Source: Yuukianura sp. NJ FZ-2021 (taxonomy: Eukaryota). Taken from it: a stretch of 64,000 nt of DNA. Of the stretch, positions 91 through 45,048 are shown piece after piece. Every line of letters begins with the position of its first letter. Position 1 is the first letter of the stretch. The notes below the pieces were generated by a model. The model had not been told where the DNA came from. It searched no databases and worked only from the letters and a program-made list of their open reading frames with translations. The stretch spans positions 4,526,001 to 4,590,000 of the forward strand of contig CM102286.1 in NCBI GenBank assembly GCA_046563655.1, given 5' to 3'. The translations under genes and the position numbers were made by a program.

Positions 91-3000
91 ATCATCATCC
101 GAATCTCGGGATTAAATGTGCTCCTTATCACATCTTTCCATCCAACGTGGAAGGGCACTGGCGAGGACTTCGATTTGAAAATTCCCGCCACAGAGAAACT
201 TATAGCCACGACAACACCCTCAGAGTCAAGGAGTCACTTTCATCTCTCAAGTACGTCGATTTGTTGTACGCAGGCGTCGGAAATGGCTACAACGTCACTT
301 CAGCCATTGAGACGATTGGAGTTCCACCGTCAATGTCGTTCCTACGCGTTGAATACTCGGCGTTCAACGGCCTCAATGTCACGTACCCGTCGACAAGATC
401 TGCAATCCGAAATTCAACAATCAGCAACAATGCGGGTAAGGAAAATTTTGAATGAAAGGGTGCCAACCGGACCCACCTTGGTCCAGTGTAGCAACCCTCC
501 CGTAACCTCGGCAGTGACTCAAAGAAGGTGAAAGACGTGACCCTGGAATGCGTGCGACGATGAGTTTATTGCGCTGTTCGCCCTAAGGGTCCCTCTGGAC
601 CTCGGTGTTGGATACCAGGACTCGTCCACTCTTCAGCTCCTCCATCATGGTGGAAGATCTGGAGAGGAGACCTACTGACTCTCGGCTACTCTCCTGCTTG
701 ACTCTCTCCCTATCTACTAACTGCCCCGCTCTCCCGCACTCCTCTGCTACTTAAGCTTTCTCTCATGGTCAGGAATGTGACCATGAGAGGAAGCTGCCAA
801 ACCCAAAAGTAGCTCCTCTCACTCGGCCAACATAGGCTCGTGTGCAAAACCTTGAGTCAGTGTGCCAAATCTATGTGGGTAGTGAGGACAGGGTTCCGTG
901 GGCTAACCACGGGATCCTGACCTCACATTCCTCCCGCCAACACCGAATTCCTGGAAGGAATTCCCTTTCTTTACACAGCCTCAATGTTAGTTGTTAGCAA
1001 TGTATCCTATACTCAAAGTCACACATTTTTTGTTTTGATGCACACGACATGAAATAGCTATATAGTATTCTGATAACAATGTCTTATCGGATCTTATGCA
1101 GGAGTTGCTGCTAACATTGTGTTAATTACATACATATACATTACTAATAAATACACTAAACATCTATACATGACTACTTGTCGTTCGTATTTTTGTGTTT
1201 CTGTATTGCTTTTACGGGTCACACATATCTACATATACGCCAGGAAGGGTAGCATTAGTTGAAACAGAGGTAGCAATTTGCGTTACTTCGTAAAACTCAG
1301 TATTAATTGGGATGAAATCTCCAGTATGAGTGAGCGTCCAATCATCGTTGTCCGTATCTCGTGTAGCCGATTTGTTCCACAGAAGTAAGGTCGAAAGAGG
1401 GTAGTAACAACAATTTCGAGATGGGGGCAGAAAATCATAGGTTAGATTCAAATGTACGACGAGGTCACATGTTTTTTCTTGGGTATAGAACGTATAACTG
1501 TCTCCCCATACTAAATATGAATTAATTAATTCACAATGTCCAGGGCAAGCCGTAATAGGCTCTAAATTGTTAACATGAATAAACTTTTTCCTATTATAAG
1601 TTCCTTTATGCACACGAATAATTAGTTACAGAGCTGTAGGACGTGCCGGTCGAGAAATAGTAGGCGAATGTTCGATGTTGAGTTCCATAGATGGTGTCAT
1701 TGAGTTTTCGTAAGACACTGTCATCTGTACTTCGGAAGGGACTAACCAATCTATGGCATTCTGGGAAAGGGACCCGGCTCCGAGTCGTGTAGTACGTGTG
1801 TCCTGTGTGACCAAAGAAATAAACTGTTTTAGATTCGTATGAGATTTCCTTGATACATTCAAATGCCATGAAGATGTCGCCTGATGAAGATCAGTGGTAA
1901 AATTAAGGCATCAGTGGGATGAGTGGTACTACAATATTCATCGGGTTTGGTCAGTTGATAGGGCACTCCATGGTCCAGTGTGAGTTCTGCGCTGTAATGC
2001 TGATCGGGTATCGGTCAATTGACAATTTCTGGTGTTTCTTCCGGTTTCGGCGTAGTCCAATTAATACGAATCAGTTGTTCCATCAAATTTTTGTCATCAG
2101 TGGTCAATTTTTGGCATTTTGTATGTCAGGGCTCCTGTTTTAGGGTCATAGTGGTATAAGGGGTGATCTTCCTTGACCGACATGGATCCGATATACTGAC
2201 GGAATATTGCTTCCTCATTTTTAAGTTTCGCCACGATGACCAGCGTTGAGATGATGATGATGACTGTTATGAGTTGACGGATTCTAAGCTTCATGCTGTG
2301 TTCCTACAGCAATAATTATAAGCAGCACATGCTTCCTTATATTTTTAGTTTTGTTAGTCAATAATGTATAAACTTAACCTATGGTTAGTGAGTTACTTTG
2401 TAGTTTACATTACATTATGTTCAGTTTCATAATTTTTAAGCCATGTGGTCGTAGGCCGTGTCCTTTGGGGACTAATAGCTAGGGATGATTCGTGTTTAAT
2501 TGACCTTGCATGTATGTTATGAGCAATGTCAATTTGTTCTTCAGTCAATGGCGGGAAATTCAAAAAGCAAGTGTTTTAAATCCCGAATCTGATCATGAGT
2601 CAACGCTGTATTTCTGCACACGTATATATGTTCGATATGAGTTTGATACAATGCCTGTGGTAATTGATTTATGTCAAAGTCTGTTCTGGTTTCATCAATC
2701 TCAGAAGTCTCAAGTTGTAAAGGATGGGCGTGAGTAATATTTAGTTTACTTGCTTGTGCCTCCATTTCTGTGGACAAAACGGTACTTTGTGTATCAGTTT
2801 TCCTGTTCCATTTATTCAAAAATGGGGTAACCGTATGTATACCAATTTGATGTAAGACTTGTTTTTCATTGAACTCATTAGTGTCATCGCTACTCTCATT
2901 TTCTTCTCTCATAGAAATACTCACTTCTTCTTTGAATAGAGGAAGTGGCCTGGAACGGATTTCACCTCCTTTCCACTGAGGATCCGTTATAGAAGAAAGT

Positions 3001-6000
3001 GGTGTATTCCAGATCACTTTCTCCTCATGACCGGTCAGTGATGTGAGTATTATTTGTTTACAAAACTGTTGATTTATGCCTGTGTTTGGCTGAATCTCTG
3101 ACTCTGCGTACGGCTTAACCCTTTGTCTCGTGTTTAATTGCTCCTCTTTACTATTAGGAGTGTGATTCCCCCTATCACTCTCCTCCACCTGGGGTGGACT
3201 AAAAACTATTGGTTCTCTCTCTTGATCTCTGTTTCCTAATTCTACAGTAGCGATGTTAACCTGATTGAGTTCATGATTATTGTTGCCGGTAGTGCCCATA
3301 GCCAATACGGTGCTTCCCACCTTGATTGTCTTGTCTAAATAATTAATTTGAATTTTAGCTTTTTCAAGGAAATCTGCTCCCACTAGTGCTTTTAATATGA
3401 AGTCCTCAAGTACAAGCATTGAATGCAGAAATATTTCACTTCCAATTTGAATGGAAACATGAGAGCTACCAGAAGGTTCGATTGATTTGGTGGTAATACC
3501 AGACAATGCTATTTTTTGCTTTAACTGCTGAATATTATGCGGATTGATTAATTCAGATGATACTATGCGAGCACATGCACCTGTACCGAGTAAAATGGGT
3601 ACTTGCATTTGGTTAATAAAACCTGTAATTATTAATAAAGGACCCGTCCCTACTGTCAAGTTAACTATTGATGCGTATTGATGAAAAGTTGACTCATGAT
3701 CTTTTGGCGTATTCGTTAGGATAGTCGCTGCGGTAATCGATTTGTCATAAACAGATTGTGGTTTCGCGGAACATAATTCATACTTGGGTTGAATGGAGGT
3801 CGTTACTGAAATTGAGTCCCGGGGTAGCTTGACCTCTGAAAGTTCCCCCGAGTCCCATTTTTTGCATAAGGCTCCGGCTCCAGCTCAGTAACCGGCTCTT
3901 TCATTGCCACTAAGACTTGCAAATTTTTGACATTTTCCTCAAGGTCTGAAATTTCTTTGTCTTTAATAACGGTAGATTCAAGGGCGTATGTTAAAACATT
4001 GACATCGCGGTGATGCGCAATGATTTGATTGGTGTCTTCAATGCCTCGCCCTATTTTCAAAAATTCCTCCGTCGTTTTTGGGTTTAACAGAGATATTTGA
4101 CTCAAAAACGACGGTCTGGAGTTTTTTATGAGATACTTAACTCTTTTCTCCTCATTCATCGTTGGATCATATTGTTGAATTAATTTTAACAATTCATATG
4201 CATATTTCTCAATGCTTTCATGGATTTGTTGTTTGCGATCTTTATATTTCAATTCAGCGGCTAGTGAATCTTTGTTACCAAAAATGCGGATGAGGTCTGA
4301 TCGAAGTTGATTATACGTTATGGTGACGGCTACTCCTGCCGCTTCGCGTCTCAAGCGATCAATTTCTACAACCGCCCAGGCTTCTGCAGTCCCATCTAAT
4401 TGGCAGGTTAAAGTTATTGCCATTTTCCCTGCAGGTATGTCATTGGCTGCGCATGCAAGCTCAAATTTAGTTATAAACGTAAGCACATCTTCGCCTGACT
4501 CTCCTGAAAATCTAGGTAGCTTAACTTTAGCGGACATGGTTACAGGCTGCAATGCTAAAGCCAGTTGTCCTGTATTTACTGAATCGAATGAGAAAAAGGT
4601 TCGGATTGTACCTTGAAGGTGTTCTAGTATCGTTGGACAATGATACCTGATACCTGGAATTACTCCTTCCGGATTATTGTGAAGTCAAGTTTGGATTTTG
4701 TAAATTGCTGACTGTGTTTTACTGATTGATCCCGTAAAACCCTTGGAGGATTTGACAGAGTTATTGGTTCTGGATCCTAAAAATGCTGTGTTCGGGTATT
4801 TGAAACTTTTTCTAATGATTTCAATCCCATCCCTTTCGTTTTTTCTTAATGTCCCGACAAATTTCCATACTATGAGTTGGGTGTCAAACTTGCATGGATC
4901 CCCGAATCTCCTGTACATGCATGGGGATCGGATAAACTCCCGGTACACTTGCCAGCTTGGACATTATTGGTAGGCCACCCATTGAGGTCAGTAGGCCATC
5001 CCCGCCCTGTCTCCAGTTAGCCAACTCCTTCCCGCATTATTTTGGGCAAAACGACTAAAGAACCTTGCACGCGTCCTGTTTGTTCCATTTATTTGTTTGC
5101 CAATTCAACTTGCCAACTTTAAGTAGGGTAAAGTTGTGTTAAAATTAGAGAATATCAGTGCTGTGCAAAAAGTGGTATGAGCATTTTTCCTTTTATCGCG
5201 CGCTTCCTGGTTTTTCTAGTTGATCCTCGACCTATTTTTGGCATTCTACGCGTGTATGACCTGGATGTAAAATTATTTTTAAAAGAATGAAATCTTTAAA
5301 TAAATTGTACGCTTATTATTTTAAAATAACTAAAATAACAGAAATTAGCTAAGCCCAAATAAAACTCAAACCGTGTATATTTTATCCTTGATCTCGTTTC
5401 CCATGGCAACGGTAATGGTGGTTTCGTACTCCATAGGGTGTAGTATGCTACCATATATAAGTGCTCCGCTCCTGATGTACGGTACTCAAAATATGCATTA
5501 ATTAAAATTTATACCGTTTGATTTTTGTGAGGTTTGAACGAAAAAGATATTTTGTCAAATCTCCTATTTCCCATAGCAACCATATATACCGTAACCCTCC
5601 CCACTGACTGGGCCATCTACCTTATATACGTTAAAAGGATTTACTGTAAGGAACTGGAGATATTTAGTTTTGACTTTATAGATTTTTAAATGACAAATTT
5701 CGTAAAAATCCAAAGTAAATGTAAGCTGCCATTTCGCAAGCAACTGGTTTCGGATGGCTATGTCTGTATGGGAATCCAGTTTACGTAGTCCTGCTTTTGA
5801 ACGGTTCCATGCCATTATTTTAGCTAACTATGTTCAAAACCCAACGGCTCAAAAATTAGGGCGATAACCAAACCTAAAACACACATTGAACCTAATGTTT
5901 CTGAACCACTTAAGCTCCCGAACCAATTAATTTTTGAACCAGTGGCATGCTTACTTTTGAACCACTAGTCTGTAAAATTTTTGTTACTAAATCAGCTGAT

Positions 6001-9000
6001 TTAGTGTGAGAGTGGACACTGGGCTAACTAATGACAATGATAAGTGAATCGTTATTCTATGCTGTCCTCTAAGCCTTAAGGATGCAGGATCCATTATATG
6101 GCAGCCTTGTTATTGCTACAGTACCGTTTTACTATAACATGTGTTATTATATTGCCCTGTAATAGCTATCAAGATTAGAGGGTAACTCGTCATCTCTTGA
6201 AGAATTGAATTAAATGCCAGTGAGTACTTTTTACTAAGGAATTGCAATAAAGAAAAATGATTCAGAAAGTTTTAGATGATATTACATTGTTGGAACAATT
6301 GTTTCTCATCCGTTGACTAAGTCATTTGAAGGTACTTATTTAGTAGAAAATGTCTGCCGGATTGAAAATAAATTTGTTATAGTAGTAAAAGTTGAAAGAA
6401 ACATAGACTATGTTATTAGTCCTTGTCTGAAGGTATTACTCTGTCTGCCTATAGCCTTACTTCTCCCTGATGGATATACTCTCGCCTCTAATTTGACGTC
6501 ATTCTCGAGGCGTGAGTCTATCCACAGCAGAGTATAGTAACGGTTATATGCTGTGCCTAAACACAAAACGGAACCTTCCGCACATAGACTAACTGCACAG
6601 GACTGTGCTGTTGAGTTTTCCATTCCTGACCTTATTACATTTTCTAATTGAATTGTGTTCAGTATACCCTCATTTTCAAAATTCTCATCATGAATCCTTT
6701 ACAAATAAGTGTTTTTAACTTCGTAGTTCTGATTCAGAACTTTATGGATGGTGCAAGTTTTTACCCTCACTAAAGTTTTTACCTAACTAATACTACCAGT
6801 AACAAAAAGGCGCAGACGCAGTGTAGTTGGCCCTATAGCCGCTTATAATCAAGTTATTATTTTGCTTCATTTTGTACTTTTTGATACTAATTATATAAAA
6901 ATCTAGTACTTGTCAATGAGTACATTTCGTTCCCCATGATGCCTAATTACATTAGTAGTGAAATTGGTACCTGATAGAATGGTCCCCCTGCATCGGGCAC
7001 CAATGAAAGGGTGCCAACCGGACCCACCTTGGTCCAGTGTAGCAACCCTCCCGTAACCTCGGCAGTGACTCAAAGAAGGTGAAAGACGTGACCCTGGAAT
7101 GCGTGCGACGATGAGTTTATTGCGCTGTTCGCCCTAAGGGTCCCTCTGGACCTCGGTGTTGGATACCAGGACTCGTCCACTCTTCAGCTCCTCCATCATG
7201 GTGGAAGATCTGGAGAGGAGACCTACTGACTCTCGGCTACTCTCCTGCTTGACTCTCTCCCTATCTACTACTACTCCGCTCTCCCGCACTCCTCTGCTAC
7301 TTAAGCTTTCTCTCATGGTCAGGAATGTGACCATGAGAGGAAGCTGCCAAACCAAAAGTAGCTCCTCTCACTCGGCCAACATAGGCTCGTGTGCAAAACC
7401 TTGAGTCAGTGTGCCAAATCTATGTGGGTAGTGAGGACAGGGTTCCGTGGGCTAACCACGGGATCCTGACCTCACATTGAATATTTCATTTTTTTTAACA
7501 TTATTTAATAGAGTTACAAACATAGGGTTGAAAAATACAATAATAACAATAACAATAAAAGGCAAAGCACAAAGGAAAGCTGAAATTTGACGTTTGGGAA
7601 TGAGAATGTTTGAGTTTTTCTCTTGCTGAAAAACTGACAGGAGAAAGCTTCCAGTGCGAATTGTGTTTACCATGTAATTCGATAAAACAAAAAAGGTTTT
7701 TGGAAAGAGCCCGACTTACCTTTTGTTCATCTTTCATCTTAGAAACAGAGTCTGATCCTATTTCATTTGTGTTCTAGAAACTGTGTATAGCAAGACGATG
7801 TTGTTTTTCTAACGAAACTACTTTGTGTTTTACCCGAATTTTTAGGATTTGGAATCTACGTCAACAGTTCACTAACAACTTTTGAAATTGAGAGTTGCTC
7901 CATCGAGTCTAACGGAGCTGACGGAGTTCGATATGTTCTGCATGATGCAATTCCTGATCAAAAAGTGGATGGAATTGACCAGTTCGACTTCTGCACAATT
8001 CCTATGACAAATCAAATTTACCCGCTCCGGTTGTATTTTGAACAATTACACACTGCTTTCTCGGAGAAAGGATGCCGGAAGGTCTGAAATGATTTCTCAA
8101 AATTCAAGCAAACAAAAATATTGTTTCATGCTTTTGAAAATTCAAAATGTGAAAACTATTTTTGCTTTTAGAGATTCATTGTGAAGCCAGGCTATGTTCT
8201 AACAGTTCATTTTCCGTTCATGTCAAGCCAAGAGCCAGGAGGCGCAGAGTTCTTTGTGTATGATGGCATAGACTCAAGAGGAAACATGCTGGCGACAGTA
8301 TCTGTTCAAAATGAAACTTGGATTCAGTCAGTGACCTCTTTCAAAGACTCAATTTACGTAGAGGTCAAGGCAAAAGCACAAAACAGAGTACTTGTTTACA
8401 TGGACTTGGTCGCTGGAAAAAGTGAGTCATAGTGTATTTTTCAATATACTAAACATTAAATATAAATATTGAATATTTATACCAACACAATCTTCAAATT
8501 CCTAGTCAAAGTTTTTCTTATGCTGTCGAATTCAACAGCCTAAATTGGTTTAAGAAGTAGGAGAAAACCACAAGAAAGTGGCATTCCTTGTTTTTCGAAC
8601 AAAAGCCGATCTTCGGTCCTAATTTGCAATTTCGCGCTGAAAATTGGATTTGGAATTTCTAAAAGCACAGCGTGTTTTAACAATATGTTGTGGTTTTGTA
8701 GGCAAAGACTACGAATTCCGTCTCGCCAATTCCGTCGTGGGATCCAATAACGGTAGAGGTTTAGCCATAGAAAACATGCGGAGTCAAGTGATCGTTGAAG
8801 ATTCTACGGTTAAGGAAAACAGTCACATCGCTGGGATTCACGTTTTGGGTGGAACTGGGCATGTCAATGTAAGCCGTTCCAGCGTGATTTCCAATTTTGG
8901 TGATGGGATTAACATCACTTATGGTGGCGGATCCAGAAATATCTCCCGTTCCAAAATTTTGGCCAACACACAAAAGGGAATCAGCGTCTGGTTCAATGAA

Positions 9001-12000
9001 TCTTCAATTAAGTTGCCCATGGAACAGGAAACTGTTGTGGAATATTCGGAAATTGCTAGAAATCTACATGAAGGAATTTTCGTTGGAAATTTTTGTACAA
9101 ATGGAGTAGTGAATATCTCCGGAAATGTTTTTAGAGAAAGCAAGAAAACGGCTCTGGAAGTCTGGAGTTGTTGGAGTCCACTGCGAAGCAAAACTTTTGG
9201 AAATTTACTCAACCTGGAAATTGGTCACAATCGATTTACTGGAAACGAAGATTTTGGAATCAAGTTGAATCCATTGGTTAACGTTGATGGACTGATTGAA
9301 CACAATTACTTTACGGCAAATAGTGTCAAAGGCTGCCTCGTCATTGGTGGAATGGATAAAAAAGAATTGGAAATTTTACCATCAAAAGTTGAAGTGTCCA
9401 ATAACGTTTTTGAAGGAAATTCTGGATACTTTGTAGCATCTCTCGGCCTGAGCCATTTTTCATCTCGCCAAAAATTACTTTTTACTCAAAATTTTGTCCG
9501 TTTCAACCGAATTCAAGATCCGTCTCAACTAAATCCAAGAAGTCGTGCTCCAGCGCCTATTGTCATATCTTCAGCAAATGTTGACGTTTTTCGAAACATT
9601 TTTCAAAATCCAGATTCCAAGTACGAAGTGGCTTCGCAAATGGAAGATCAAAGTTTTGAGCTAAACTGTACCTACAATTGGTTCGGAGCGACTGAAGAGA
9701 AAATCATTTACTACAGAATTTTTGACAGAAAAGACAGATTCAATTTGGCCAAAGTCAAGTACATTCCATTTTTACTTAATCCAACAGACCCAAATACAGA
9801 AATTGCAATGACTATGGCTCAATTTGTACCGACTTTTGATAATCCTGAGAAGATGATTGGCGGAGAAATTACTGGAAGAGAAACGCTGACGGCTGGGGAG
9901 TATAGAGTTGTGCGTGACATTAGTGTCAGACCGGGCGGGAGACTTCAAATTTCTTTTGGTGTGACACTTAAGTTTTTGCCTTCGGTGGGAATCATGGTCG
10001 GTGGTCAATTTCATTCTGAGGGATACGGATATGGCGATGGAGAAATGGTCAAGATGACCTTGTTTGACCTCGGAAGAATGAATGCTACTGATGCTCCAGT
10101 TAGGCTAGTCGGTGGGAAGACGCGGAAAGACGGCAGACTACAAGTAATTTCGCACATGCTCATTCAATTTTCTGGTCAGTATTTTGCTAACTGCAGCGCA
10201 AATTCCTAATAACAGGTTCGAATTGGGGCCATTTGGGGATCAATTTGTAACTACGGATTTGACGCACAAGCAGCGGCAATCGCTTGTAGACAAATGGGTT
10301 TTGTTCTGAATCCATCTGATTGGCTGCTCGAAGGCTTTGAAGTTCCACAAGCAAGTCCATCGGAACAAATTCTGATGAGGTAAGTTTTTAAAAAAGTAAT
10401 TTAGAAAAGTTTGTTCTTAAATGTTGCTTCAATCTCTTCTGTTGTATTTTTTTATTTCAGCAATGTCCAATGTACTGAATATGACCATGATCTAACCAAA
10501 TGCAAAGCGGAAATGAGCGAAGACATTGAGAATTCATGCGCTTTGGATAACTTAGTTGGTATTCGGTGTTACGACACTTCGTGGGCTGGAATTCGAATGG
10601 CAATTACAGCAGACAAAAGCGTCATGAAATTTACGAGTGTTGAAAAAGCAGGACTTTTGGATCCTCATACAAACGAACACAAACCTGGTGAGATTTATGA
10701 ATGCAAAGGAAAAGATCGAGGAAACTAATTAGAAATTTCACTTTACTTTTTGATACAATTTTTTGAAGCAATTCAACTGGACTTTAGTCACCACGTCTTT
10801 AGTGACATTCAAGTTACGGACAATACGGGTGATGGACTTGGTGTAATTTACTCGGACATTTACTTTCCCGATGCTGTCAACACCGTGGAGAGGTCAGAGT
10901 TCAGCCGAAACTTGGGAAATGGACTGCTACTGCGCCAACTCGGTCTACATCTCAAAGGCACACAAAATTTCATAACACCTCAAAATTTTGAATTTAAATT
11001 CAAAAACAGTTTTCCTAAAATTCCAATTTTTTTTTATAGACTGTTCAATAGAAAATAACAAATTGGCTGGAATTCTGCACGATCCAGCCATTCTTCGAGC
11101 CCACCAACGTGAAATGGCTGGATGGGTCACCGTAGGAAAACGAGACAACATTGTGTACTTGCCAATGCGTGATCGAGACTTATGGTTAGATCCAGACGCT
11201 CACCGTTACCTCATCACCGGAACAGAATCTGATGCCAGTGAAGTGTATAACATTGTAGCCAAGGATCAGAACTACGTCATCTCCATGCAACTTTTGAATC
11301 CCATACACAATGAAAGTACCGAAAACGTATGGATCTACGATAGGATGGACATTCCAGCAAAAGAAGGCGTAGAATACTTCCATGACCTCGAAGTCTGGTC
11401 AGTTCGGCGTGACACCGTTTCGTTTCCAACTGCAAGCAGTTCCTATGGAATCACTCTTTGGATTAAAACTGGACCTAGACCGCGTGGAAATTGTATTTTG
11501 CTGGTTAGGGCAATTCGTGCTCCGGTGAATCGATTCGTACGCTCAGCATACTTACAAGGACCGCTCCCGAAACTTAAGGTTTTTGACACCAAAATTCGAA
11601 ACAATGGGCAAGGAATTGGAACGATTCATTACAATCGTAATGAAAATGAATACGGAGATTTGTATTTAAGAAAAGCCAACGAGTCAATTGAAGTGATACG
11701 GTCTGACATTTCCTTCAACCACGGAGAAGCAGTTCATGCTTACACGCCATTCAGAGAAATTTACGCTTCAAATATTTCTGAAATTACTTTCGTAATTAAC
11801 TCTACCACGATCACGGACAATGCCAAAGTCATTGTGCAGTACAGCAGGTAGGATGAACCTCAATTTTTCTCATTAACTTTGGATTTTCAAAAAAAAAAAT
11901 TTTTTTTGAAAGTTTTCTGATTTTTTTCATTTCTGGGATTTTTGCAGGGACCAACGAAATTCGAATAATTTGTTTCACTGGATCATGCGCGACGATTCAA

Positions 12001-15000
12001 TTGACAGAAACCGGGAAGGTGGATTTCAAATTTCACTTCCCTACGTTTGGCAATACAACGAAAACCATACCCATTCCGTCCACATTCAAAACGTGACGTT
12101 CCGCCACAATCAAAATTTTGAAACTACAATAAGTGGCCATTTTAGTAAAGTGAAAGTTGTGAACACGATTTTTGAAAATAATGTTTGCCGCCATGGTGTG
12201 TTTACACTTTCTGGAATGGAAAAGGAAATGCTAATTTTCAACAACCAGTTTCTGTCTAACCGTGCCAGCTACGTTGTTCAATTTGACGCAGACTCCCAAT
12301 CTGAAATTGTTGGTCAAGTTCAGGCATATTTTGTGAAAAATATTGTCAAGTACAATACGTTCAATACACATCGAAGCCATCGTGATAATAGCAAAGCCAA
12401 ATCAAGGCGTCAGTTGGACACTGCAACTTACCAACCCAGAAGCTACGCAATTGCAATCAAAGGAGTTCAGAAAGTCAATGTCACCAATAATCTTTTCGGA
12501 GACAACCAATTGGATTACGAATTGCTTGCTGGAGTAGCCACGGCCAAATTAGACAACATAGTGAATGTTATTCACAATTGGTAATTTTGAAAAGAAATTT
12601 CAAAACAGTTTTTCAGTTTTTTTTTCTTAAACTTTGGATTTGGATTTTTTTTTATTGGTAGGTGGGGCACATCAGATCCGTTGAAAATTAAAGAACGAAT
12701 TTTTGACTTTGACGACTGGAACAGTTATGCGATTGCGTCGTACCGTCCGTACTACTTGCAAGATAGTTTGGAGTCGTCAATTTCCTTGTCATATGAATCT
12801 GAAAATGATGTGACCTTGGACCACCTTCAGGGCAGACTAATGCACCCATTGACATTGTACAACCGAGATCAGCCTTATGTCATCAGAGCTGACTTGACCA
12901 TCATGCCTACTGCGCAGTTGTCGATAGCCCCGGGGGTTCAGATAGAATTTTATCCCAGTGTCGGCATCCTGGCACTTGGGCCTCTTATGGCTCAAGGAAC
13001 ACCCGAATCACCTATAATCATGCGCCCTATTACTCTTCAGAAGAAGGTGAGAATTGTTTTTAATTAATAAGGCGTCTGGAGTACTATACTGATCAACATT
13101 TTTTAAATTTCAGGAAGTTATTGACTCCATGTTCCGTTCACCAACTATGATGGAGGAAAATACAGTTCGCTTGTGCGCAGAAGACAAGTGTGAACGGAAT
13201 ACTCGACAAGGATTTCTAGAATACTATAACAAAACAACGCTACAGTGGATTCCAATGTGTGACAATAGGTTTACAGAAAGAAATGTGCAAGTTGTATGTC
13301 GTCAGCTAGGTTTTGATCACATGAATATTTTTCTGGATTTTGGACATCGAATTGAGTTTCATTACAACTCGCTGCGGAGAATCCGAAAATGGCCGGAACC
13401 GCTTCAGTGTGTTGGTAAGTGCTATGTTTGCAAAAATACGAAGAATTTCAAATTTTGAATTTCGGATTTCCTGAAATTTTAGGTGATGAGGAAACGTTGG
13501 ACGACTGTCCAATTCGGATGAATGGACAATTATATGGCTATGACTACCCGTGTCAATGGGATGAGCCTTTTATTTTTATCAACTGCGGAGAACGAAATCT
13601 AAACAAAACTATGGAATACTGGGGAGGAATTCGGTAACTAAAAAATGACACCAAAATAAAAAAAAATATTGGCAAAAAATTGTGCAATTTTGTTTCGAAA
13701 TTGTTTTTTCAAGATTCTCTGAACCCGATTTTGAAGAGCATTTGTTCGAATCACGAATGCATGACGCCGTGACGCACAGTTCCTACGAAAGGGAGGAAAG
13801 TATGTTGGAATACGTTAACATATATGGAGCTGGAATTTTACATAACGAAAAAAGTCCCGCCATTTTGAGCGTCCTTCAAAGTCCAACTATTCGTTGCGTC
13901 AATATCACCACTTCAGCTCATCATGGGATTTCTATTGTTTCTGCACACAAGACCTTGAGAATGACTAAGCTCGGGTAAGTTTCTGGATACATTATTTGTG
14001 TATTGCAGTTTATTTAATTTAGTTTATGTCGTACAGATTTATAGACAACCTTGGTATTGGCTTTACCGGAGTATCGCTAACAGGAGAAGCGCAGAGGTCA
14101 GATTCAAGTTCGTTTTTCCCGCTAAAGAAAATTGAAATCCCGTATGGAATGTTTGGCCTCGTTCACATTTGTGACCCCAACAAAGAAATCATTGTTGAAG
14201 AACGGGTCGTTTTGTACTACAAGTACGACAATTTCCCTGTAGACTGCGTCAAAATTTTCAAAAGTGTTTATGGTTCAAAGAATCTCGGGTTTAGGTAAAA
14301 TTATCAAACACAGTTACTGTATTTTTGTCGTAGTCGGTAATTAATTACATGTCATGTATTATATTAGACTCATGCAACTGAATTTGTTCAACTCAACGGG
14401 AAAACCATGGCCTCCTGACTACATCAAATTAATTGATGGCGACATTTACAACTCAACAACTGAGGAAATTTCAACGATTACAATGGACTACGATCCTCAC
14501 GCTTCTAACAAATTTTATCAATCGTCTTGGCCAAGTCTAAGCGTCCAACTACATGCTACAGGAGCAACAGCTTACCACGGTTTTGTAGCAGAAGTTTTAA
14601 CACTTCCAGTTTCTCCGCATGGTCTAGGTAAATATTAAAAGTTCAATTTAAAATAAACATGATTGATTTAAAATATTAACCAAAATAGGATTTTTTTTTG
14701 CATTTTAGATCGTAGCATTCAACACAACATTTCCTACAGCATTTTTCAAAATAATAGTCAAGGAGCATTTTATTATGGATCGGCTGGAGAAATCAGCCCC
14801 GCTGTCACACTTGAACGAAACCGGTTTGAAGACAACTGTGAAGAATTTTACGGAAACTTTACTTCCTGCAACAGCACAATTCGTTTCGATGTCCAAAACA
14901 TGCTAAACATTTACTTCAAAGTAAGTCAATTTTGCTACAAAAATTTAAAACTAAAAAAAAAACATTCTATTTGTTTTGAAACTTTAGAACAATGTCCTGA

Positions 15001-17892
15001 GGCGAAACCAAGGCGGAGTTCATATTACTTCGGATTCAAGCGGAACTGCAACGTCCCTTAAGGGCTATGTTTATAACAACGTATTTGAGAATAACACGAA
15101 CAGAGAAGTGATTCATGTGGAAGGTCGCCGCAGTAGCCCGTACCAAGAAATCGTTTTCTATCGTAACGTCGTTACAAGAAATGACGCCAACTTTGTTGAT
15201 GTCGTTGTTCTAACTCAAGTATAAAATTCATGACCCAGACAATCTTTTATCTTAGATCATGGTGGCTTCATTTTAGTTCATCTGAGTTGCTATTTTTTAG
15301 GTGGTGTCGAATCTTACTGACAATTATTTCAGTGCCAACCGTGGAAATCACATAATGGAAATTACTGGATTCGACAAAGTTCGCTTGCCAATCTACCAGT
15401 CCTGTACACACAACTCCTTCTTCATGTAAGTCTGAAATATATTTAAGACTGTAGTTCAAACTATAGTTTGAACAAAAACTTTGGCGAAAATGTTGGAAAT
15501 TGTTTTTCGTGAGCATTGTGTTGAATTCTACAGGAATATAGCTACAGATTTGGAAAATAAAGCAACAATTGTCGCTGGAAGTACCGGTCAGCAGTACATT
15601 GACAACATTCTTGTAAATCCTGCCAACGATTATGAGCTTAGCACAGTTAACAAATCGAGGTAAAATCCATTCAATTTGTTCGCTTTTCTCGATGTCATTT
15701 TAATTTTCCAAACTGCAATACTAAATGCATGCAATTTTTTCATTTCTTTTCCCTCATCTTATGTTTGGATTTCACCACTGCAATGCCACTTTACTTGTAT
15801 GTTGCTTTGAATTAACAGACCCAGAGCAATGAGGTAAACCACTTTACTAGCAATTCCAATCTTTCGCAATTTCATTTTCATTTCAAAAAAATTTTCATTT
15901 TTTTCCAATCTTTTGATTGAAAAGTTGAGTAACAATTTCTTATTTGCGAATGTAGTTATGAACCACAAAGTGCTGTAGATGCTCGACACAATTGGTGGGG
16001 ATACAAAGAGGACATTCCAGTCATGGGTAGAATCCGAGATGAAAATGACAATATTGACCTACTGCGCGTGCTCTTTCTACCGTATCGAATAGACAATCGA
16101 ACATTGCTCAGTGGAAAGTGTCCACCAGGATATACACTAGTGTCGGATACATGCTACATTTATATTGGTGGATACATGACTTATGCAGAAGCAAAGGAGT
16201 TTTGTCGCCGAGAGAATGCGTCAATGCCCTACGTCGAATCCAGCTACTTCTACGTTACTAACTTTCTGAGAAACCAGCAAGAAGACTACGACTACTACGA
16301 TCGTGTCTGGGTTCAAGATGTCGATAGGTTTGGAGAATGCACGGTGTTTGTCACTGGCACGGTCAAGGCCGCTGACTGTTCTTACAGACTTCCCTTCATT
16401 TGCGAAACAGGTTACAAAAATACGTTTCGATTGAAAAAAAATTTTTTTGTTCAAAATTCTTATGATTTTGTTAATTCTGATTTGATTTTTTGTAGATCCG
16501 AGGATTAGCATTGACCCTCTAGCTTGGACAACCGATTCAGTGACGATTGGAGCCCTCGTGTCAACAATTTTAGCACTTGTTTTAATTATCTTCATTTTAG
16601 TTTTTTGGTACACAAAATCTAAACAGCGTCAATCTGAACGCTTGGAAAGAAGAAACTCTGTTCGGGCGTCCATTCGATCTAGTCGGTCATTTGCTTCTTC
16701 TGGAAGTCTCAACGAATCGGAATACAGGCGGCGCCTTGCAGAATTTGTAAGACTTTTTCACAAAAACATAAGTGAGTAGAAAGTTGCCATTACTTTTTAA
16801 CTTTTTTAATTTTAGCAAAAATCAATTCAAAGAAATCCCGAAACGAGCTTAAACAACTACAACAAAGTGAACGGAAGTTTTGATTCGCTTGAAAAATCCA
16901 ATTCTCAGTTTGACTCTGCTTCGTACGACATGTACGAAACTCAAACACAACGAACGGGAATGTCATCTGATGGAGAGGAGCCATTCGGACTTCCAGTCAG
17001 TCGACATCCAATGGGACGTCCGCGTCCAGTTATTCCCCCAACCATTGGTCTTCCACCTCCGCCTCCAAGTCATCTCAGAAATGTTCGCGCCGACGTGCAA
17101 CCACCGGCACCAAAACCATTTGATCTCACTTTTCAAAATCAAAACTTTCGCGAGACGCCATCTACTGGCTCAACTGCTGTTCCAAATGACTACTGGGACT
17201 CAGCTCCCACACTTCAGAGTAATGGAAATGGTGGCATTAAGTACAAAAATACAAATCCGTCGAACGGTTTCATGGGCACAACTTCCACACTTCCGCTTCA
17301 ACCGTCAACTGATGACGTATCTGAAATTAGCGACTTTTCACCTATCTCTCTCCGCCCGTATCCCGTAGCAACCCATCCAGAACTTCCAAAAATGTCCAAA
17401 AGTGATGACCATTTGGATCATGACCCCTTGACCCGCCCCGTTCCAACATACAGTGAAGCTCCAACGCTCAACTACCGAAGTCGGGATGACGACAACGGTT
17501 TGAAGACAAGTCGGAGTCAACCGATACTTGACTCCGGTCCATTGCAAGAACACGTAGTTCCAGAAATGATCTCATTTACCCCTAACCCCCCAAGACGTGA
17601 CACTATTCATCTCCCTCTACCTAGCAGAGTTAAGGAAACAAGTTTAGATGACTTGGACAACACGACTGAATTGGACTATGAGTTGGACGAAACTGTTCGG
17701 CCAATCAGTACTGCCTACTTAGAAACGAACATGGATGATGACAGTGGTCATCTGCGACCGTTGAGGGGTGCTCAAAGTCAATACATTCCTAGCCCAGCGA
17801 CTCAAGCGCATCAAAATCCTTTCAGAGTGAATGACGATTTTAAAGCACTAAGTAGCAGAAGTAAAAGCATGCCTTTGGAAACGGAAATGTGA
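91..17892 (+). CDS. bark: Bark beetle/anakonda-like septate-junction transmembrane protein (multi-exon, 5' part outside window)
   Basis: Spliced ORFs give parallel beta-helix (NxxxG) repeats, SRCR domains (VRLVGGKTRKDGRLQV...WGSICNYGFD; VRLCAED...VQVVCRQLGF), a CUB-like segment, a C-type lectin (CPPGYTLVSDTCY...LPFICE), one TM helix (16540-16610) and a low-complexity tail ending PLETEM. Exon 91-435 joins in frame to the exon starting at 7846 (NNAG|FGIYVNSS) across the retroelement. Confidence 0.9.
453..927 (-). repeat. 3' LTR (475 bp)
   Basis: Starts TGAAAGGG, ends CCTCACA; differs from the other LTR by about 2 single-base indels and 2 substitutions; minus-strand AATAAA at 565-570. Confidence 0.96.
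928..938 (-). other. Polypurine tract
   Basis: Minus strand GGCGGGAGGAA directly abuts the 3' LTR. Confidence 0.8.
1212..2294 (-). pseudogene. env-like glycoprotein gene, disrupted (about 3 frameshifts, 2 TGA stops)
   Basis: ORF fragments 2294-2097, 1869-1606 and 1613-1212 plus the intervening frame join into about 360 aa. The product has an N-terminal hydrophobic stretch, the Cys pattern AFECIKE...YFFG...FPEC...TNY...CPGHC...LVW...C and N-glycosylation sequons, and sits at the env position between pol and the 3' LTR. Confidence 0.7.
2541..3863 (-). CDS. Truncated pol: retropepsin-like protease (catalytic D>G) plus linker, reached by -1 frameshift
   Basis: LLGTGA (for LLDTGA) and ALVGADFL motifs; the frame is open from about 3884 to 2541 and ends at the pre-RT motif LTHDQIRDLKHLLFEF; no RT, RNase H or integrase motifs seen. 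Confidence 0.85.
   Translation of the reverse strand, partial: KKWDSGELSEVKLPRDSISVTTSIQPKYELCSAKPQSVYDKSITAATILTNTPKDHESTFHQYASIVNLTVGTGPLLIITGFINQMQVPILLGTGACARIVSSELINPHNIQQLKQKIALSGITTKSIEPSGSSHVSIQIGSEIFLHSMLVLEDFILKALVGADFLEKAKIQINYLDKTIKVGSTVLAMGTTGNNNHELNQVNIATVELGNRDQEREPIVFSPPQVEESDRGNHTPNSKEEQLNTRQRVKPYAESEIQPNTGINQQFCKQIILTSLTGHEEKVIWNTPLSSITDPQWKGGEIRSRPLPLFKEEVSISMREENESSDDTNEFNEKQVLHQIGIHTVTPFLNKWNRKTDTQSTVLSTEMEAQASKLNITHAHPLQLETSEIDETRTDFDINQLPQALYQTHIEHIYVCRNTALTHDQIRDLKHLLFEFPAID
3803..4537 (-). CDS. gag: Ty3/Gypsy gag (capsid), no zinc knuckle
   Basis: MSAKVKLPRFSGESGEDVLTFITKFE...LDGTAEAW...RKQQIHESIEKYAYEL: typical retrotransposon gag N-terminal motif and major homology region; uninterrupted ORF. 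The start codon is uncertain. Confidence 0.9.
   Translation of the reverse strand: MSAKVKLPRFSGESGEDVLTFITKFELACAANDIPAGKMAITLTCQLDGTAEAWAVVEIDRLRREAAGVAVTITYNQLRSDLIRIFGNKDSLAAELKYKDRKQQIHESIEKYAYELLKLIQQYDPTMNEEKRVKYLIKNSRPSFLSQISLLNPKTTEEFLKIGRGIEDTNQIIAHHRDVNVLTYALESTVIKDKEISDLEENVKNLQVLVAMKEPVTELEPEPYAKNGTRGNFQRSSYPGTQFQ
6986..7002 (-). other. Primer-binding site (tRNA-Lys-like)
   Basis: Minus strand TGGTGCCCGATGCAGGG, one base after the 5' LTR; its complement resembles the 3' end of tRNA-Lys (...CCCTGTTCGGGCGCCA). The primer identity is tentative. Confidence 0.75.
7004..7476 (-). repeat. 5' LTR (473 bp)
   Basis: Near-identical copy of 453-927, adjacent to the PBS. Confidence 0.96.
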
Positions 17893-39791: not shown

Positions 39792-40659
39792 TTAGTTATT
39801 TTCTGCAACAGTTTTTGCAGCGAAGATTTCAATCCAGTATCCATCGGGATCTTTGATGAATGCAAGTCCCTTCATTTTACCTTCGTTCGGTTTCTTGACG
39901 AATTCGATTTCATGTTCTTCAAATCGTTTACAAGCAGCATCTACGTCTGGAACCAAGATACCAATATGACCATAACCCATTCCATCAGCATTCCCAATTT
40001 TGTAGGCAAAGTCTGGCTGGTTTTCAGTTCCCCAATTACTAAAAAATCAATATTTGTAAAATCCGTCCACTTTATGTCAAATCTAAATTAAATAACAACA
40101 TTTATGTCATACTGTGTCAATTCCAGTGTAGCCTTGCGTGTCATGGCCCAAACTGTTCGTTCTTTGTCATCATGTGGTCGATTTGCCCTGTCCTCGTATC
40201 CCATAAAGTACAGAGAGAACTTCATCTCTGGAAAATCCATTTTCTTCAACAGTGTCATTCCAAGCACTTGCGAGTAGAAGATCAACGATCGTCGTGGATC
40301 CTTGATTCGGTACATAGTTTGTTGGAACATAAAGTCCTATGAGCATCAATTGAAAGCGTTAATTAGTACTGTCAATTTAGCCCAACAATCAACAGTTAAT
40401 GACATGCATTAATTTTTACCTTAGTCGACTCATGAGGCGGATGTGCACAAATTTTAGCTGCTTCTTCGTCACTGAGTGGTTGAAGTCCTCTGTCTGAAGC
40501 CATTTTAGTTGAAAACGATTGGTGAACTGGAATGAAATTAACAGATGATTTGGAACGAGCGTCGACGAGCTGTCTAGCCGGTCTGTTGTAGATTCGTAGT
40601 GGGCATGTTAGGCTTATTGTAGGGAGCCATATGGATATGACTCGTTTCAAGGACAGCAT
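39792..40659 (-). CDS. Glo1: Lactoylglutathione lyase (glyoxalase I); alternative ATGs at 40659 and 40503
   Basis: [54 protein letters not shown]. Confidence 0.95.
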
Positions 40660-41459
40660 CTCTAGTGACAATTTTGTGATGCCACGATAGCGTTACTTTC
40701 ACTTTTCACTTTTCAATTTACAGTTATGACCATGTAACAATTTATCACATTATCATTGTTTGGTATCTTTTGTTTCATCACATTCAGCATACTATAAAAA
40801 ATAAACCAACATGTTAAAAATGTAACTGTGGATGCATTTTTACAAGTTGTTATCAATAAAGTTGTATTAATAAAGTTGTATAAATAAAGTATATTACAAG
40901 TTGTCAGCAATAAAGATACATAAATTTGTTTAAAAGAAAAGTTGTTTGATAATTTGTACAAGTTTGGCATGTTTTCGTTTCCAAATCAAAAAGAAAAAAT
41001 TCCGCTTCAAATTTTAACATATCGATTTTTTTTGCTATAAAGCAGTGTAAATGTGAAAGTGATTTTCCAAGTCATCCAACTGCGTAGAACTTAACTGGAT
41101 CCACGGAGCAGATGAATGGACTTGATCTGTCAGACATTGCGGTTGCGGTTGATACGAATGATAAGCTGAAACATGTTCATAACGACGCTGTGATGGCTAA
41201 ATTGTCGTGCTAACCTTAAGCAGCTTATACTGTGTTTGTTTTTAATGCTGAAACTGTTGGCTTAATGAAACTAGCAACTATATTAATCATTCCATACTCA
41301 CATCTTGTCTTTAATTTTTTCAAAATTGAGTGCTTCTGTGCTGTGTAAAGTTCCTTACTTACCTTACTTTGCTTACCGTATTACCGTTAATTTTGAGTAA
41401 TAATTGATGTAATAAATTTCGCTTAAAGGAAGGTCAAACTCTTTGGCGATTTTCCAATC

Positions 41460-43984
41460 ATGTCACAAAACTCTGCAAAATTGGAAGGATTTGACCGTAT
41501 TTTTAACTTGGTCGGTGGAGGGGGATGGTACCAATGGCTTCTGTTTTGTGTTTGCTCTCTACAGGTAACATTTGGGAACTGTAATAATTTTTGGCGTTTC
41601 AAATATGCAAATAGTAATTTCTAAAGTTTTCAGGCCTTTCTGATTTGCTTCCACTCTTTGAGCTATGTCTTCCTTGGAGCTGTTCCAGATCATTGGTGCA
41701 AAATTGACGCCCTCAAAAGTACAAATTGGACGGAAGAACAAATTAAAAACTTGTCAATTCCTATAAGATCGTAAGTTGCTGACATACTGTGCGGAAATTG
41801 CAAAGTTCTTAGAAAATTGTAAACGAATTTTAGTACCGACGCTACAAAATATGACCAGTGCGCAGCGTATAATCTGGATTATACTGCACTTGCGCAAGAA
41901 CCGACGTTTGAGTCAGCTATGAACAAAGCTAATCATTCAGCATCCACTCCCGTCAAGTCCTGTACAAGTTGGACGTATGACACATCAATTTACAAAGAAA
42001 CTACAGTTAGTGAGGTACGAAGCGGACTCAAACCAGACATGAAAAGTTAAAAAAAAAAGATTTCCGGATAGATTTAATTAATTCTACTTGTTCCAAAGTT
42101 TAATTTAGTTTGCGATCGACGCTACTTGGTGGCAACAATTCAAGGAACGTACATGGGTGGTGCTGTTGCTGGGTCTCTGATAATGGGGTCGCTCTCAGAC
42201 AAGTTGGCAAAGAAATTGCAATTTTTGAACATTTTCTCAAAAAATTTTTTTTGCAGCGTGCTAGGTCGACGCAATACGGTGCTACTTTCTTTGTGCGTGG
42301 TAATCTTATTTGGATTTGCATCTTCGCTTGCAAATTCGTACCTAGCATTTGTGTTAGCTCGGTTCTTCATATCCCTTGGAGCTAGCGGATCTTTCCAAAA
42401 CACATTTTCACTCTGTAAGGCAATAAATTGTGTTTTATTTTCTTACACTAAAAACAGAAACTTTTTCACAATTTGAAATTTTTACAGTAACGGAAGTCTG
42501 TGACAAGAAAAATCGGGCCAAAATCGGACTCATCTCTAACGTGCCATTTGCATTTGGTCACATGGCACTTCCAATTTATGCTTACTTTCTTCGAGACTGG
42601 AGAAGCCTCCAAATTGCTATTGCAAGTTCAACGCTACTTCTCCTCAGTTATTTTTGGTTAGCTGAATATCTGCGAAGGCGATTTTTTCCGAATTTTGAGA
42701 AAACTTCAAATTTTTGTGCCAATTTTAGGCTACTTCCAAATTCTCCAAGATGGTTAGCAACCATGGGGAGGTATGAAGAGGCTCTAAAAATTGTCAATCG
42801 CGTTGCAAAGTTAAATCGCAGGCCGAAACCGCATCGTTTGGAAGCAATGGTGATTCTAGAAAGTTGTGCTGACGAAACGCTGGCGGATCGTAGACCAGTA
42901 TCTTGCGGTGCCCATTTTCTACAAACGTTGAAAAAAATTGGAAGAGGTTATGTTAATCTCGTAAGAACGCCTGAACTGCGACGGCGTTCTTTTCTAATTT
43001 GGTTCCTGTACGTTGCTGTGACGCTAGTTTACTACGGACTGTCATTCGATTCTGCGCTGCTGACAAATGACCCGTTCTTACTCGTTTTCTTAGGGCAGGT
43101 TTCGAATTTTTTTTTTAATATTTTTTTGATTTAGATTGTTCAAAATTTTATAATTTTTGATTCTTTTTTTCTTTTAGCGGACTGATGGAGATTCCAGGGT
43201 ATACCATCGTGGTTCCATTTGCGATAAAGTGGGGCAGAACTCCGACTGTGACGACGACTTTTCTGATTACAGGTTCTAGTTCTAATTAACAGATTTCTAA
43301 TGCTAATAATACTTAAGCTACAAATAATATATTAACTGCTGCTAATAACATTTTCATTTTAGGAGTTGTCTGTGGGATGGTAGCAGTGGTACCAGCCGGT
43401 ATAGCATGACAAACACACATTATTTTAAAGCGTTGCATCAATCAATATGTTAAATATTTCAATACAATTGAATTTTAAACTTTTAGAATACAGTTACATC
43501 CGCGTCGTTTTTGCAATGGTTGGAAAATTGTTCATTTCCGGTGCCTTCGGCGTCATCTACTTACTGGCCACCGAACTTTACCCAACGACAGAGCGGGCAA
43601 CAGGACTCGGAAGTGCCGTTTTGATAGGAAGAATCGGATCCATTTCTGCCCCTTACGTCGTTGACTTAACAGTAAGAAAGAAAAAAATATTTTGTAGAAG
43701 TGATAGTAACGATTTTTTTTTGTTCTCAGAGAGCTATACAACCTGAACTGCCCAGCATCATTTTTGGTGTCACTGGAATTCTTGCTGCGTTCGTGACATT
43801 GTTTCTACCAGAGACCAAAGACATGGCCTTGATGGACAACATCAAAAGTGTTGAGCAACAAGGTCAGACAGAAGAGGGTGAAACACAGATCAGGAAAATT
43901 GCAAGGCGTCTTTCCCACCCCTACGTCGATACTTCTGAATCCCAAGGAAATAATCCAACTGTTGACAAAAGTGACGAAAAATGA
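41460..43984 (+). CDS. SLC22 organic cation transporter family, copy 1
   Basis: GGGWYQ, VPDHWCKI, EFNLVCDR, LSDNVLGRR, LPNSPRWL, TELYPTTERATG, LFLPETK. Confidence 0.92.
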
Positions 43985-45048
43985 ATTTGCGTCAATATAA
44001 ACTGTGCAATAACAATTGCGTCAACGAACTGTGAGATCCGTTGTAAGCAAGCTGGAACTATTTTAAGTCTCTTTTCAGGGCAATCTCTAGTGACAACTTT
44101 GTGATATCACGATGGCGTTACTTTCACTTTTCAAGATTTATGACCATGTAACAGTTTACCATTCATTATCGGGGATCCTTATTTTAGTACAGTACACTCC
44201 ATAACATACTCGACTAGATAAAATGAAACTTTGATATAAAGTTTTGATACGCTGTTGTATAATATTCGATATGCTTTTGTATAACTTTTGGTTTGTTGCA
44301 CGTTTTCAGCTCGATTTCCAAGCCGAAAACAAAGACTCTTTAGCTTGAAAAGTTTTTGGAGTTGGAAAATTTTTGTTTGTTTTTTCTAAGAAGGATTTCA
44401 GTGTGAAAGTATCATTTTCCAAGAACGTCAATTGTCCAGAAGTCAACAGGAGACAGGATCCATGGGTCAGATGAATAGACTTGATCTGTCAGAAGTATCT
44501 TCGTGCTGCTGATATGCGGATGATAAGCTGAACATGTTTCTATAACGACTATGTAATGTCTAAGTGCTGGGTGCTAACCATAAGTAGCTTACATGCTTAT
44601 TTGTAATGCTGGAAATGTTAGCTTAATGAAAGTATATCTATATTAATCATTCTGTTCTCACATCATGGCCATAATTTAGCCCAATTCATGATCATACAAA
44701 TGAAGATGGGCCAAGTTTAGTATGCATGTTGACCTTACTTTGATAAGTTCTATTTTTACGTGAATTTCAATTAGTTTCAAAACGATTGTCCCATAGCCTT
44801 TGTTGCATTGTGTGGTGAAAACTGGTTTTTCAAAAACAATTTGATTAGTTCAAATTCTGTGTTTAAGTGTGCCAGGAAAGCATAAAGTTTTCTCTAATGA
44901 CTTTTGTATTATTTAGTGTAGTCTATCAACATATTACCATAATTTTTTTATGAAGTTCATTTTGCTAAGAAAGTGAAGTCATCACACCTTACAATTGGAA
45001 AATAAAAAATTATTAGTAGTAGTATTTCTGAGTAATTTTTTTTGCATC

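Follow-up and report, generated by a model that had tools for sequence, protein, structure and literature searches.

The window, a stretch of 64,000 nucleotides from Yuukianura sp. NJ FZ-2021 (contig CM102286.1, positions 4,526,001 to 4,590,000), carries on its minus strand, at 453-7476, a Ty3/gypsy LTR element with LTRs, a target-site duplication, gag and protease. This element is young and non-autonomous, and its env gene is a pseudogene that decays neutrally and cannot make a protein. Very probably, the gene is the dead, chimeric remnant of a lineage whose intact members carry four env genes (env1 to env4) and in which a truncated class III protein, env4, is functional. The window copy, being dead, has little weight alone, and its significance lies in the lineage behind it. 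The features of the element are listed below.

448..452 (plus strand; right copy at 7477-7481): 5-bp target-site duplication TTGAA, the same letters on both flanks
453..927, minus strand: 3' LTR (TG...CA), aligned with its partner LTR at 471 matches, 2 mismatches and 2 gaps
928..938, minus strand: polypurine-tract-like run preceding the 3' LTR, read directly off the sequence
1212..2040, minus strand: probable env4-derived body (class III domains I and II), 215 bits against the env4 profile, at least five frame switches
1810..1821, minus strand: putative first fusion-loop motif YFFG of domain I, aromatic in the env1 and env4 alignments and a hairpin turn in the env4 model
2041..2105, minus strand: junction zone, with a weak likeness to the env4 N-terminal region (one tblastn piece, E 1e-4)
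2106..2294, minus strand: probable env1-derived 5' end, a signal-peptide-like stretch and about 40 residues (env1 profile E 6e-10; env4 profile none)
2405..2470, minus strand: probable remnant of the integrase C-terminal tail, a weak match (best of 264 segments, E 0.2)
2541..3884, minus strand: protease ORF, open (Pfam RVP_2, E 3e-5), stopping just short of the RT start
3803..4684, minus strand: gag ORF, open (Pfam Ty3_capsid, E 0.003), 35% to the gag of an intact element (E 4e-43)
6985..7002, minus strand: primer-binding-site-like stretch starting TGG, read directly off the sequence
7004..7476, minus strand: 5' LTR, from the LTR comparison

The TG...CA LTRs, the target-site duplication and the primer-binding-site-like and polypurine-tract-like stretches place the element in Ty3/gypsy, together with a Ty3-type gag and an aspartic protease, for which the Pfam matches are weak and the gag relatives carry a pol with protease, RT, RNase H and integrase (PR-RT-RH-IN). 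The protease ORF aligns only with residues 75-429 of the pol of relatives, and no match to RT, RNase H or integrase was found in any of the three copies of this family in the genome. The two sister copies are 94-95% identical across the entire 7 kb. A search of the assembly with the LTR gave eight matches, six within the three copies and two single, and a gag search revealed no close full-length parent. Both sisters lie between target duplications of their own, and the two LTRs of each agree without a mismatch; as no such parent was found either, the shortened form itself has moved recently and in trans.

A remnant does occupy the env slot, from an ATG at 2294 to a stop at 1212, as the earlier note had proposed. 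In a frameshift-aware alignment, positions 2040-1215 scored 215 bits against a profile of six intact relatives; the controls reached 13-16 bits in 8/8 shuffles and 19 bits on the opposite strand. The homologous path switches frame near 1969, 1887, 1619, 1440 and 1364 and crosses no stop. Two of the joins proposed before, near 1900 and 1615, correspond to the switches at 1887 and 1619, but the remaining three had been missed, and the read-through of TGAs at 2015-2017 and 1891-1893 is unneeded, as both lie off the homologous frame. The motifs YC, AFECIKE, YFFG, FPEC, TNY, CPGHC, LVW and CDL are all found in the gene, ALIY lies in no single frame, and a conserved Cys-Pro block at about 1438-1364, in another frame within the last "open" ORF, had been overlooked. 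The sister copies have six and three frame switches, partly at different sites. Within its 1083 nt, the env region has 7 indels relative to one sister and 11 relative to the other, a rate of 6.5-10 indels/kb that resembles that of non-coding DNA; in the 2220 nt of gag and protease, the counts are 0 and 1. Assembly error was considered as the cause of the frameshifts and rejected, given that the gag and protease ORFs are open in 3/3 copies.

When two natural pieces of the window gene served as protein queries against the genome, 21 and 17 matches came back. Some of these are open frames of 337-368 aa, and longer frames about 5.9 kb farther upstream gave an additional, weaker match. The window pieces group with env4 in a 22-row tree (support 100/99), and with outside proteins added the row nearest to the window body is P0011 (45% over 203 columns). 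A Pfam search with four pieces of the window env gave no matches.

The beginning of the gene points to a different source. Codons ~9-63 match the start of env1 (E 6e-10) and not the start of env4, and the 38 residues past the hydrophobic stretch beat 1000/1000 shuffles against four of five env1 proteins and none of six env4 proteins. The junction zone at 2041-2105 gave no significant match in the profile search. From env1 start to env4 stop, intact elements measure 6.1-6.9 kb, compared with 1.08 kb in the window; the stop of the putative integrase-tail remnant lies 111 nt upstream of the env ATG, and the gap from pol stop to env1 in intact elements is 113, 133 or ~208 nt. To judge from these homologies, the window gene is most likely a deletion chimera that joins an env1 start to an env4 body, and the position near 2110, previously taken as a simple frameshift, is better read as the junction of two different genes. 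A hydrophobic N-terminal stretch without a C-terminal anchor had been described correctly; the N-terminal helix attributed to the ancestor is present in the window gene but would be the signal-like start of env1 within the chimera.

Two internal deletions are the simplest account of the env1-start and env4-body homologies, the difference in span and the position of the integrase tail. The parent would have had the order gag-pol-env1-env2-env3-env4; one deletion would have taken RT-RNase H-integrase and a second about 5-6 kb, from early env1 to early env4, after which the shortened element would have moved in trans, its env remnant decaying like non-coding DNA. It counts against this account that the assembly holds no full-length parent of the window family on which to lay the junction. 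The lack of a parent that would reveal a deletion, and an arrangement common to all three copies, would also fit a family whose only env is truncated and is naturally one gene that starts like env1 and continues like env4. We regard this as quite improbable, since an env1-like start occurs in 0/6 of the in-genome env4 genes, the element also lacks RT and integrase, as if deletion were its habit, and in the window the two sides of the break near 2110 do not share a frame. Other defective families likewise break off early in env1. A second non-autonomous family (L076:2965-6871 and L077:3853-7661; at least seven matches) keeps gag, protease, the pol tail and, of env1, only the first ~82-91 codons, and this repeated retention of the pol-env1 border suggests a cis signal there.

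In the intact relatives, gag and pol (PR-RT-RH-IN) are followed by env1, env2, env3 and env4 in a row. Five elements of this genome have this order (C3:5.72, C10:0.93, C5:3.62, C4:10.11 and C3:7.98, with env1 split in C5:3.62 and C4:10.11), as does a decayed one (C3:8.13). The four LTR-bounded elements with four env genes measure 17.5, 26.7, 27.6 and 34.3 kb, and their LTRs are 99.3-99.8% identical. On L081, an independent metagenome contig, a pol tail is followed by env1 (a 942-aa frame), env2, env3 and env4, and each of the four ORFs scores best on the profile of its own class. Because L081 keeps the same order at ~30% identity, the sequence comparison indicates that the layout is old and reaches beyond this genome. 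In the in-genome tree of 22 rows, a single branch separates each env position from all others; this still holds for env1, env3 and env4 once outside proteins join, but not for env2 (2 changes, long branches). An HMM search of 1.84 billion proteins, whose query was free of env2 rows, gave 342 matches, with 150 listed; among those listed, 121 reach E<=1e-10, and the class on which these score highest is env1 for 73, env3 for 29 and env4 for 19, many of them fragments. Ten database matches that were looked up come from JGI, ENA or Logan, and one is named "hypothetical protein"; it was one such match that pointed to L081. A word-seeded protein search with intact env4 gave 1223 candidates, none at E<=0.001, and an IMG/VR scan with env4 gave no match.

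Profiles and models agree in presenting env1 as an anchored class III fusogen, gB/Monjiviricetes-type overall. It is ~840-950 aa long from the first Met and matches Pfam Monjiviricetes_fusion (E 1e-11 to 3e-13) as well as Glycoprotein_B. Searched against PDB sequences, the env1 profile matches herpes gB over domains III to TM (E 1e-16) and, over the fusion domain, "Glycoprotein" chains (E 4e-4), which we take to be rabies G. The env1 model has a 46-residue helix, a beta crown and anchor helices, and aligns with gB domain IV (5ys2) at Z 9.3 and rmsd 3.4 over 162 residues; domains I-V and the anchor are thus all represented in env1 of the intact relatives. The rhabdovirus G-like character claimed for the window gene stands in part: the fusion domain is compact and G-like (Pfam Rhabdo_glycop_FD, E 3e-4 to 1e-2 for env1; 22.1 bits in one env1 at a cut-off of 22, 17 in another, none for env4), but the C-terminal half matches Monjiviricetes_fusion and gB, and the family as a whole is gB/Monjiviricetes-type. 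The linker of env1 is long, and two of the three proteins scanned have an RxxR-type site in it.

The three genes behind env1 encode paralogues of its N-terminal half. Env2-4 align with this half with nine invariant columns, seven of them Cys (9 rows), and correspond to the part of env1 that precedes the linker; in the profile comparison of env4 with env1 (probability 99.9%), the match ends at env1 column ~289. A C-terminal hydrophobic helix was found in 3/3 env1 proteins vs 0/15 env2-4 (0/6 env4). The earlier note had called for intact copies in helper elements; intact relatives do exist, with env4 lacking and env1 having a TM anchor. Its truncated ancestor is likewise real as an anchorless form of ~350 aa, with six intact copies in the genome, but it accompanies the full fusogen and does not replace it.

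Intact env2-4 gave no meaningful Pfam match, and the env4 profile gave none against PDB sequences. The modeled env4 is that of an intact relative (L048:8736-9779; pLDDT 72, pTM 0.47), at ~30% identity to the window and not the window's own product. Among the Foldseek matches listed for it in the PDB, there were only gB and vesiculovirus G chains (E 4e-6 to 1e-4), and in BFVD the best was the Keturi virus glycoprotein (E 1e-11), followed mostly by glycoproteins of negative-strand RNA viruses. VIA-align against 48,161 chains placed class III proteins in all of the top ten positions (Z 10.0 to 5.6), ahead of unrelated helices at <=4.7; an unrelated cellular protein had been allowed for as the best match, and nothing cellular exceeded Z 4.7. 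The model matches gB, vesiculovirus G, thogotovirus GP and GP64, which bears out the assignment to class III and not to F-type env; no F-type match was listed in the Pfam and structure searches, where class III fills the top ranks. Alignment with HSV gB (2gum) reached Z 10.0 over 204 residues, and with Chandipura G (4d6w) Z 9.4 over 124 residues (rmsd 3.9). The elongated beta-sheet of domain I, with bipartite hydrophobic fusion loops, is seen in the intact env4 orthologue, to which the window is linked by profile and tree. Domain II (PH-like) is seen as well, with env4 model residues 95-347 aligned to gB 140-496, at an rmsd of 7.0, so that the domain orientation differs. Neither env4 nor the window remnant has the central helix of domain III or domains IV and V; the protein stops at ~350 aa, and no long helix appears in the env4 model. 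Thus, profile and model together show env4 as an anchorless fusion domain plus PH domain, without trimer helix, crown, arm or anchor. Class III fusion requires the trimer core and the anchor, and since env4 has neither, it should be unable to fuse membranes alone. Two further candidates were dropped: the tail of env2-4 as the start of the env1 central helix, plausible by eye and below 2 bits in all rows, and a PLAT match in ESM Atlas, whose best feature score (0.83) is within the chance range.

The aromatic motifs of env1 and env4 are probably fusion loops, given their place in the hairpins of the model, where the turn equivalent to YFFG joins strands 113-129 and 137-145. Loop 1 has at least two aromatics in 23/23 env1, 15/17 env4, 5/23 env3 and 1/9 env2 rows, and all of 20 env4 rows share the loop-2 Trp. 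Env4 lacks the first invariant Cys of env1 (C46) and ends in a near-invariant Cys of its own. Env4 is under strong purifying selection: a pair of twin elements, the source of all our dN/dS values by a simple counting method, differs at 30 synonymous vs 6 non-synonymous sites in its 348 codons (dN/dS 0.05, p 3e-14), and the same pair gives 0.14 for env1, 0.23 for env2, 0.10 for env3 and 0.09 for pol. Env2-4 are anchorless and rich in glycosylation sites, and 6/15 reach the hydrophobicity threshold that was the sole measure of an N-terminal signal. At 12/18 env starts, two of them set a codon off, a YAG resembling a splice acceptor lies no more than 20 nt from the assumed start, which is suggestive only. 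Env2-4 may be secreted and expressed from spliced messages.

The role that we favor for env2-4, with somewhat less than even confidence, is that of secreted accessories in the element's own entry step, as cofactors of env1. Env4 would bind the target membrane or lipid through its retained fusion loops, env2 and env3, which have lost loop 1, would bind a receptor or env1, and env1 would be primed or triggered by the three of them, in the way that gD and gH/gL act on herpes gB. Tentatively, and with less confidence still, this retrotransposon lineage could have duplicated its own fusogen into a multi-component entry machine, in which an anchored class III protein and three secreted domain I+II derivatives divide the labor, as an independent counterpart of gB with gD and gH/gL. 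One observation counts against the cofactor role: in the C3:8.18 element, env3 and env4 have stayed open although an env1 ORF is missing, which fits a role independent of env1. In this element (L066:944-7558), env3 measures 308 aa and env4 360 aa, and an unrelated 160-aa ORF sits between them.

This element is more easily accommodated if env2-4 are secreted decoys, which occupy the env1-type receptor or lipid or absorb host defences and so give the cell or lineage that carries them protection against related elements and viruses. The lack of an anchor and the many glycosylation sites fit such a function, as does the defective element C1:0.54, which lost pol and most of env1 and yet kept remnants of env2-4. 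Known parallels are the solo chuvirus glycoproteins of mosquitoes, proposed for defence (PMC7642597), and the ephemerovirus GNS, a duplicated G that is absent from virions and non-fusogenic (PMC4624662). However, three distinct paralogues in an order fixed from here through L081 exceed what a decoy needs, and env4 evolves more slowly than env1 (0.05 vs 0.14), unlike a protein that tracks changing targets; we therefore hold the decoy function possible but rather unlikely. It is improbable that env4 acts on membranes alone, tethering, destabilizing or marking them for cell-to-cell passage of particles without contact with env1: its aromatic fusion loops and the strongest constraint among the four env genes would suit this, whereas it has no anchor, trimer core or pore-forming fold. 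Very improbable is an exchange of heads, in which env2-4 would replace the cleaved N-terminal half of env1 on its anchored C-terminal half and provide alternative tropisms, as the env1 linker with its RxxR-type site (2/3 scanned) and the extent of env2-4, which equals the part before it, would allow, for env4 lacks C46 and has its own terminal Cys, so that its cysteines can pair internally, whereas in gB the corresponding Cys tie the two halves of the protein together, and env2 and env3 lack loop 1.

With respect to known systems, the main claim of the earlier note, a class III env in a gypsy element, is already published as a gB-type env. Chary and Hayashi (eLife 2026, PMC13524379) described an HSV/gB-type ENV in Ty3/gypsy "ancient errantiviruses" across animals, including a Collembola_C2 group, in which, as here, the gene behind a Ty3/gypsy pol is a class III env that has a signal, domains I-V, an anchor and hydrophobic fusion loops. 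Three Collembola_C2 rows of domains I-II in their supplement show, by eye, the same motif series as the env1-class proteins, a likeness that points to a soil arthropod, for example a springtail, as the probable host. In contrast to the three anchorless paralogues found here behind env1, that study annotated one env per element and removed truncated ENV; its searches covered at most 10 kb, and 3 kb downstream of pol, whereas the present elements measure 17-34 kb. Its main text makes no mention of the terms paralog, secreted, soluble, multiple env or two env. The lineage is thus a variant of the gB-type errantiviruses with three conserved anchorless paralogues, and no description of its four-gene env cassette was found in the literature searched, which covered one row of the eLife element table and had subscription journals and bioRxiv supplements outside its scope.

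More broadly, env4 has the domain I and II fold in common with the class III fusogens (herpesvirus gB, rhabdovirus G, Monjiviricetes/chuvirus/nyamivirus G, thogotovirus GP and baculovirus GP64), at identities of 8-19%, and differs from them, as does the window remnant, in lacking the central helix, crown, arm and anchor. The GNS of bovine ephemeral fever virus is similarly a class III duplicate kept directly behind the original, apparently non-fusogenic and of unknown function in that account, but it is a single protein, full-length and membrane-spanning, encoded by an RNA virus, compared with three anchorless half-proteins of a retrotransposon (PMC4624662). Anakin elements likewise combine LTRs with a class III glycoprotein, in their case that of chuviruses, and solo glycoproteins occur too; however, they belong to BEL/Pao and not Ty3/gypsy, and the abstract on them does not mention truncated paralogues within the element (PMC7642597). 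A further partial parallel is given in PMC6431247.

The entry mechanism of the gB-carrying errantiviruses is unknown, as gD and gH/gL seem absent (PMC13524379). The three conserved and putatively secreted paralogues behind env1 are candidates for gD/gH/gL-like partners of a gB-type env, or for an interference system. Furthermore, env4 offers a naturally occurring and apparently stable fragment, made up of domains I and II with their loops intact, in which membrane insertion could be studied apart from refolding. Surveys limited to 10 kb, or discarding truncated env, would overlook the four-env layout.

Several other ORFs accompany these elements. Upstream of gag, the 26.7- and 27.6-kb elements carry a 598-aa F-box ORF (L047:2212-4005 and L052:7618-9411) in which LRR-like repeats were seen by eye; its two copies give a dN/dS of 0.23. 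Just past the LTR of the 27.6-kb element are duplicated ORF pairs of 281+314 and 275+305 aa (L085:434-6863). A related gypsy element has a single full env and then a 424-aa ORF without Pfam match (L060:1031-4471), and a gypsy-like element has ORFs of 365 and 355 aa behind pol, also without Pfam match (L050:817-7110). In the window, the element is inserted antisense, 16 nt past a GT donor (436-452), in an intron of a large host gene. This gene (8641-15061) carries beta-helix and SRCR domains and presumably resembles the fly gene bark beetle/anakonda. At 40658-47703, the window holds a tandem duplicate of ~3.4-3.75 kb, 76-92% identical, with transporter-like ORFs.
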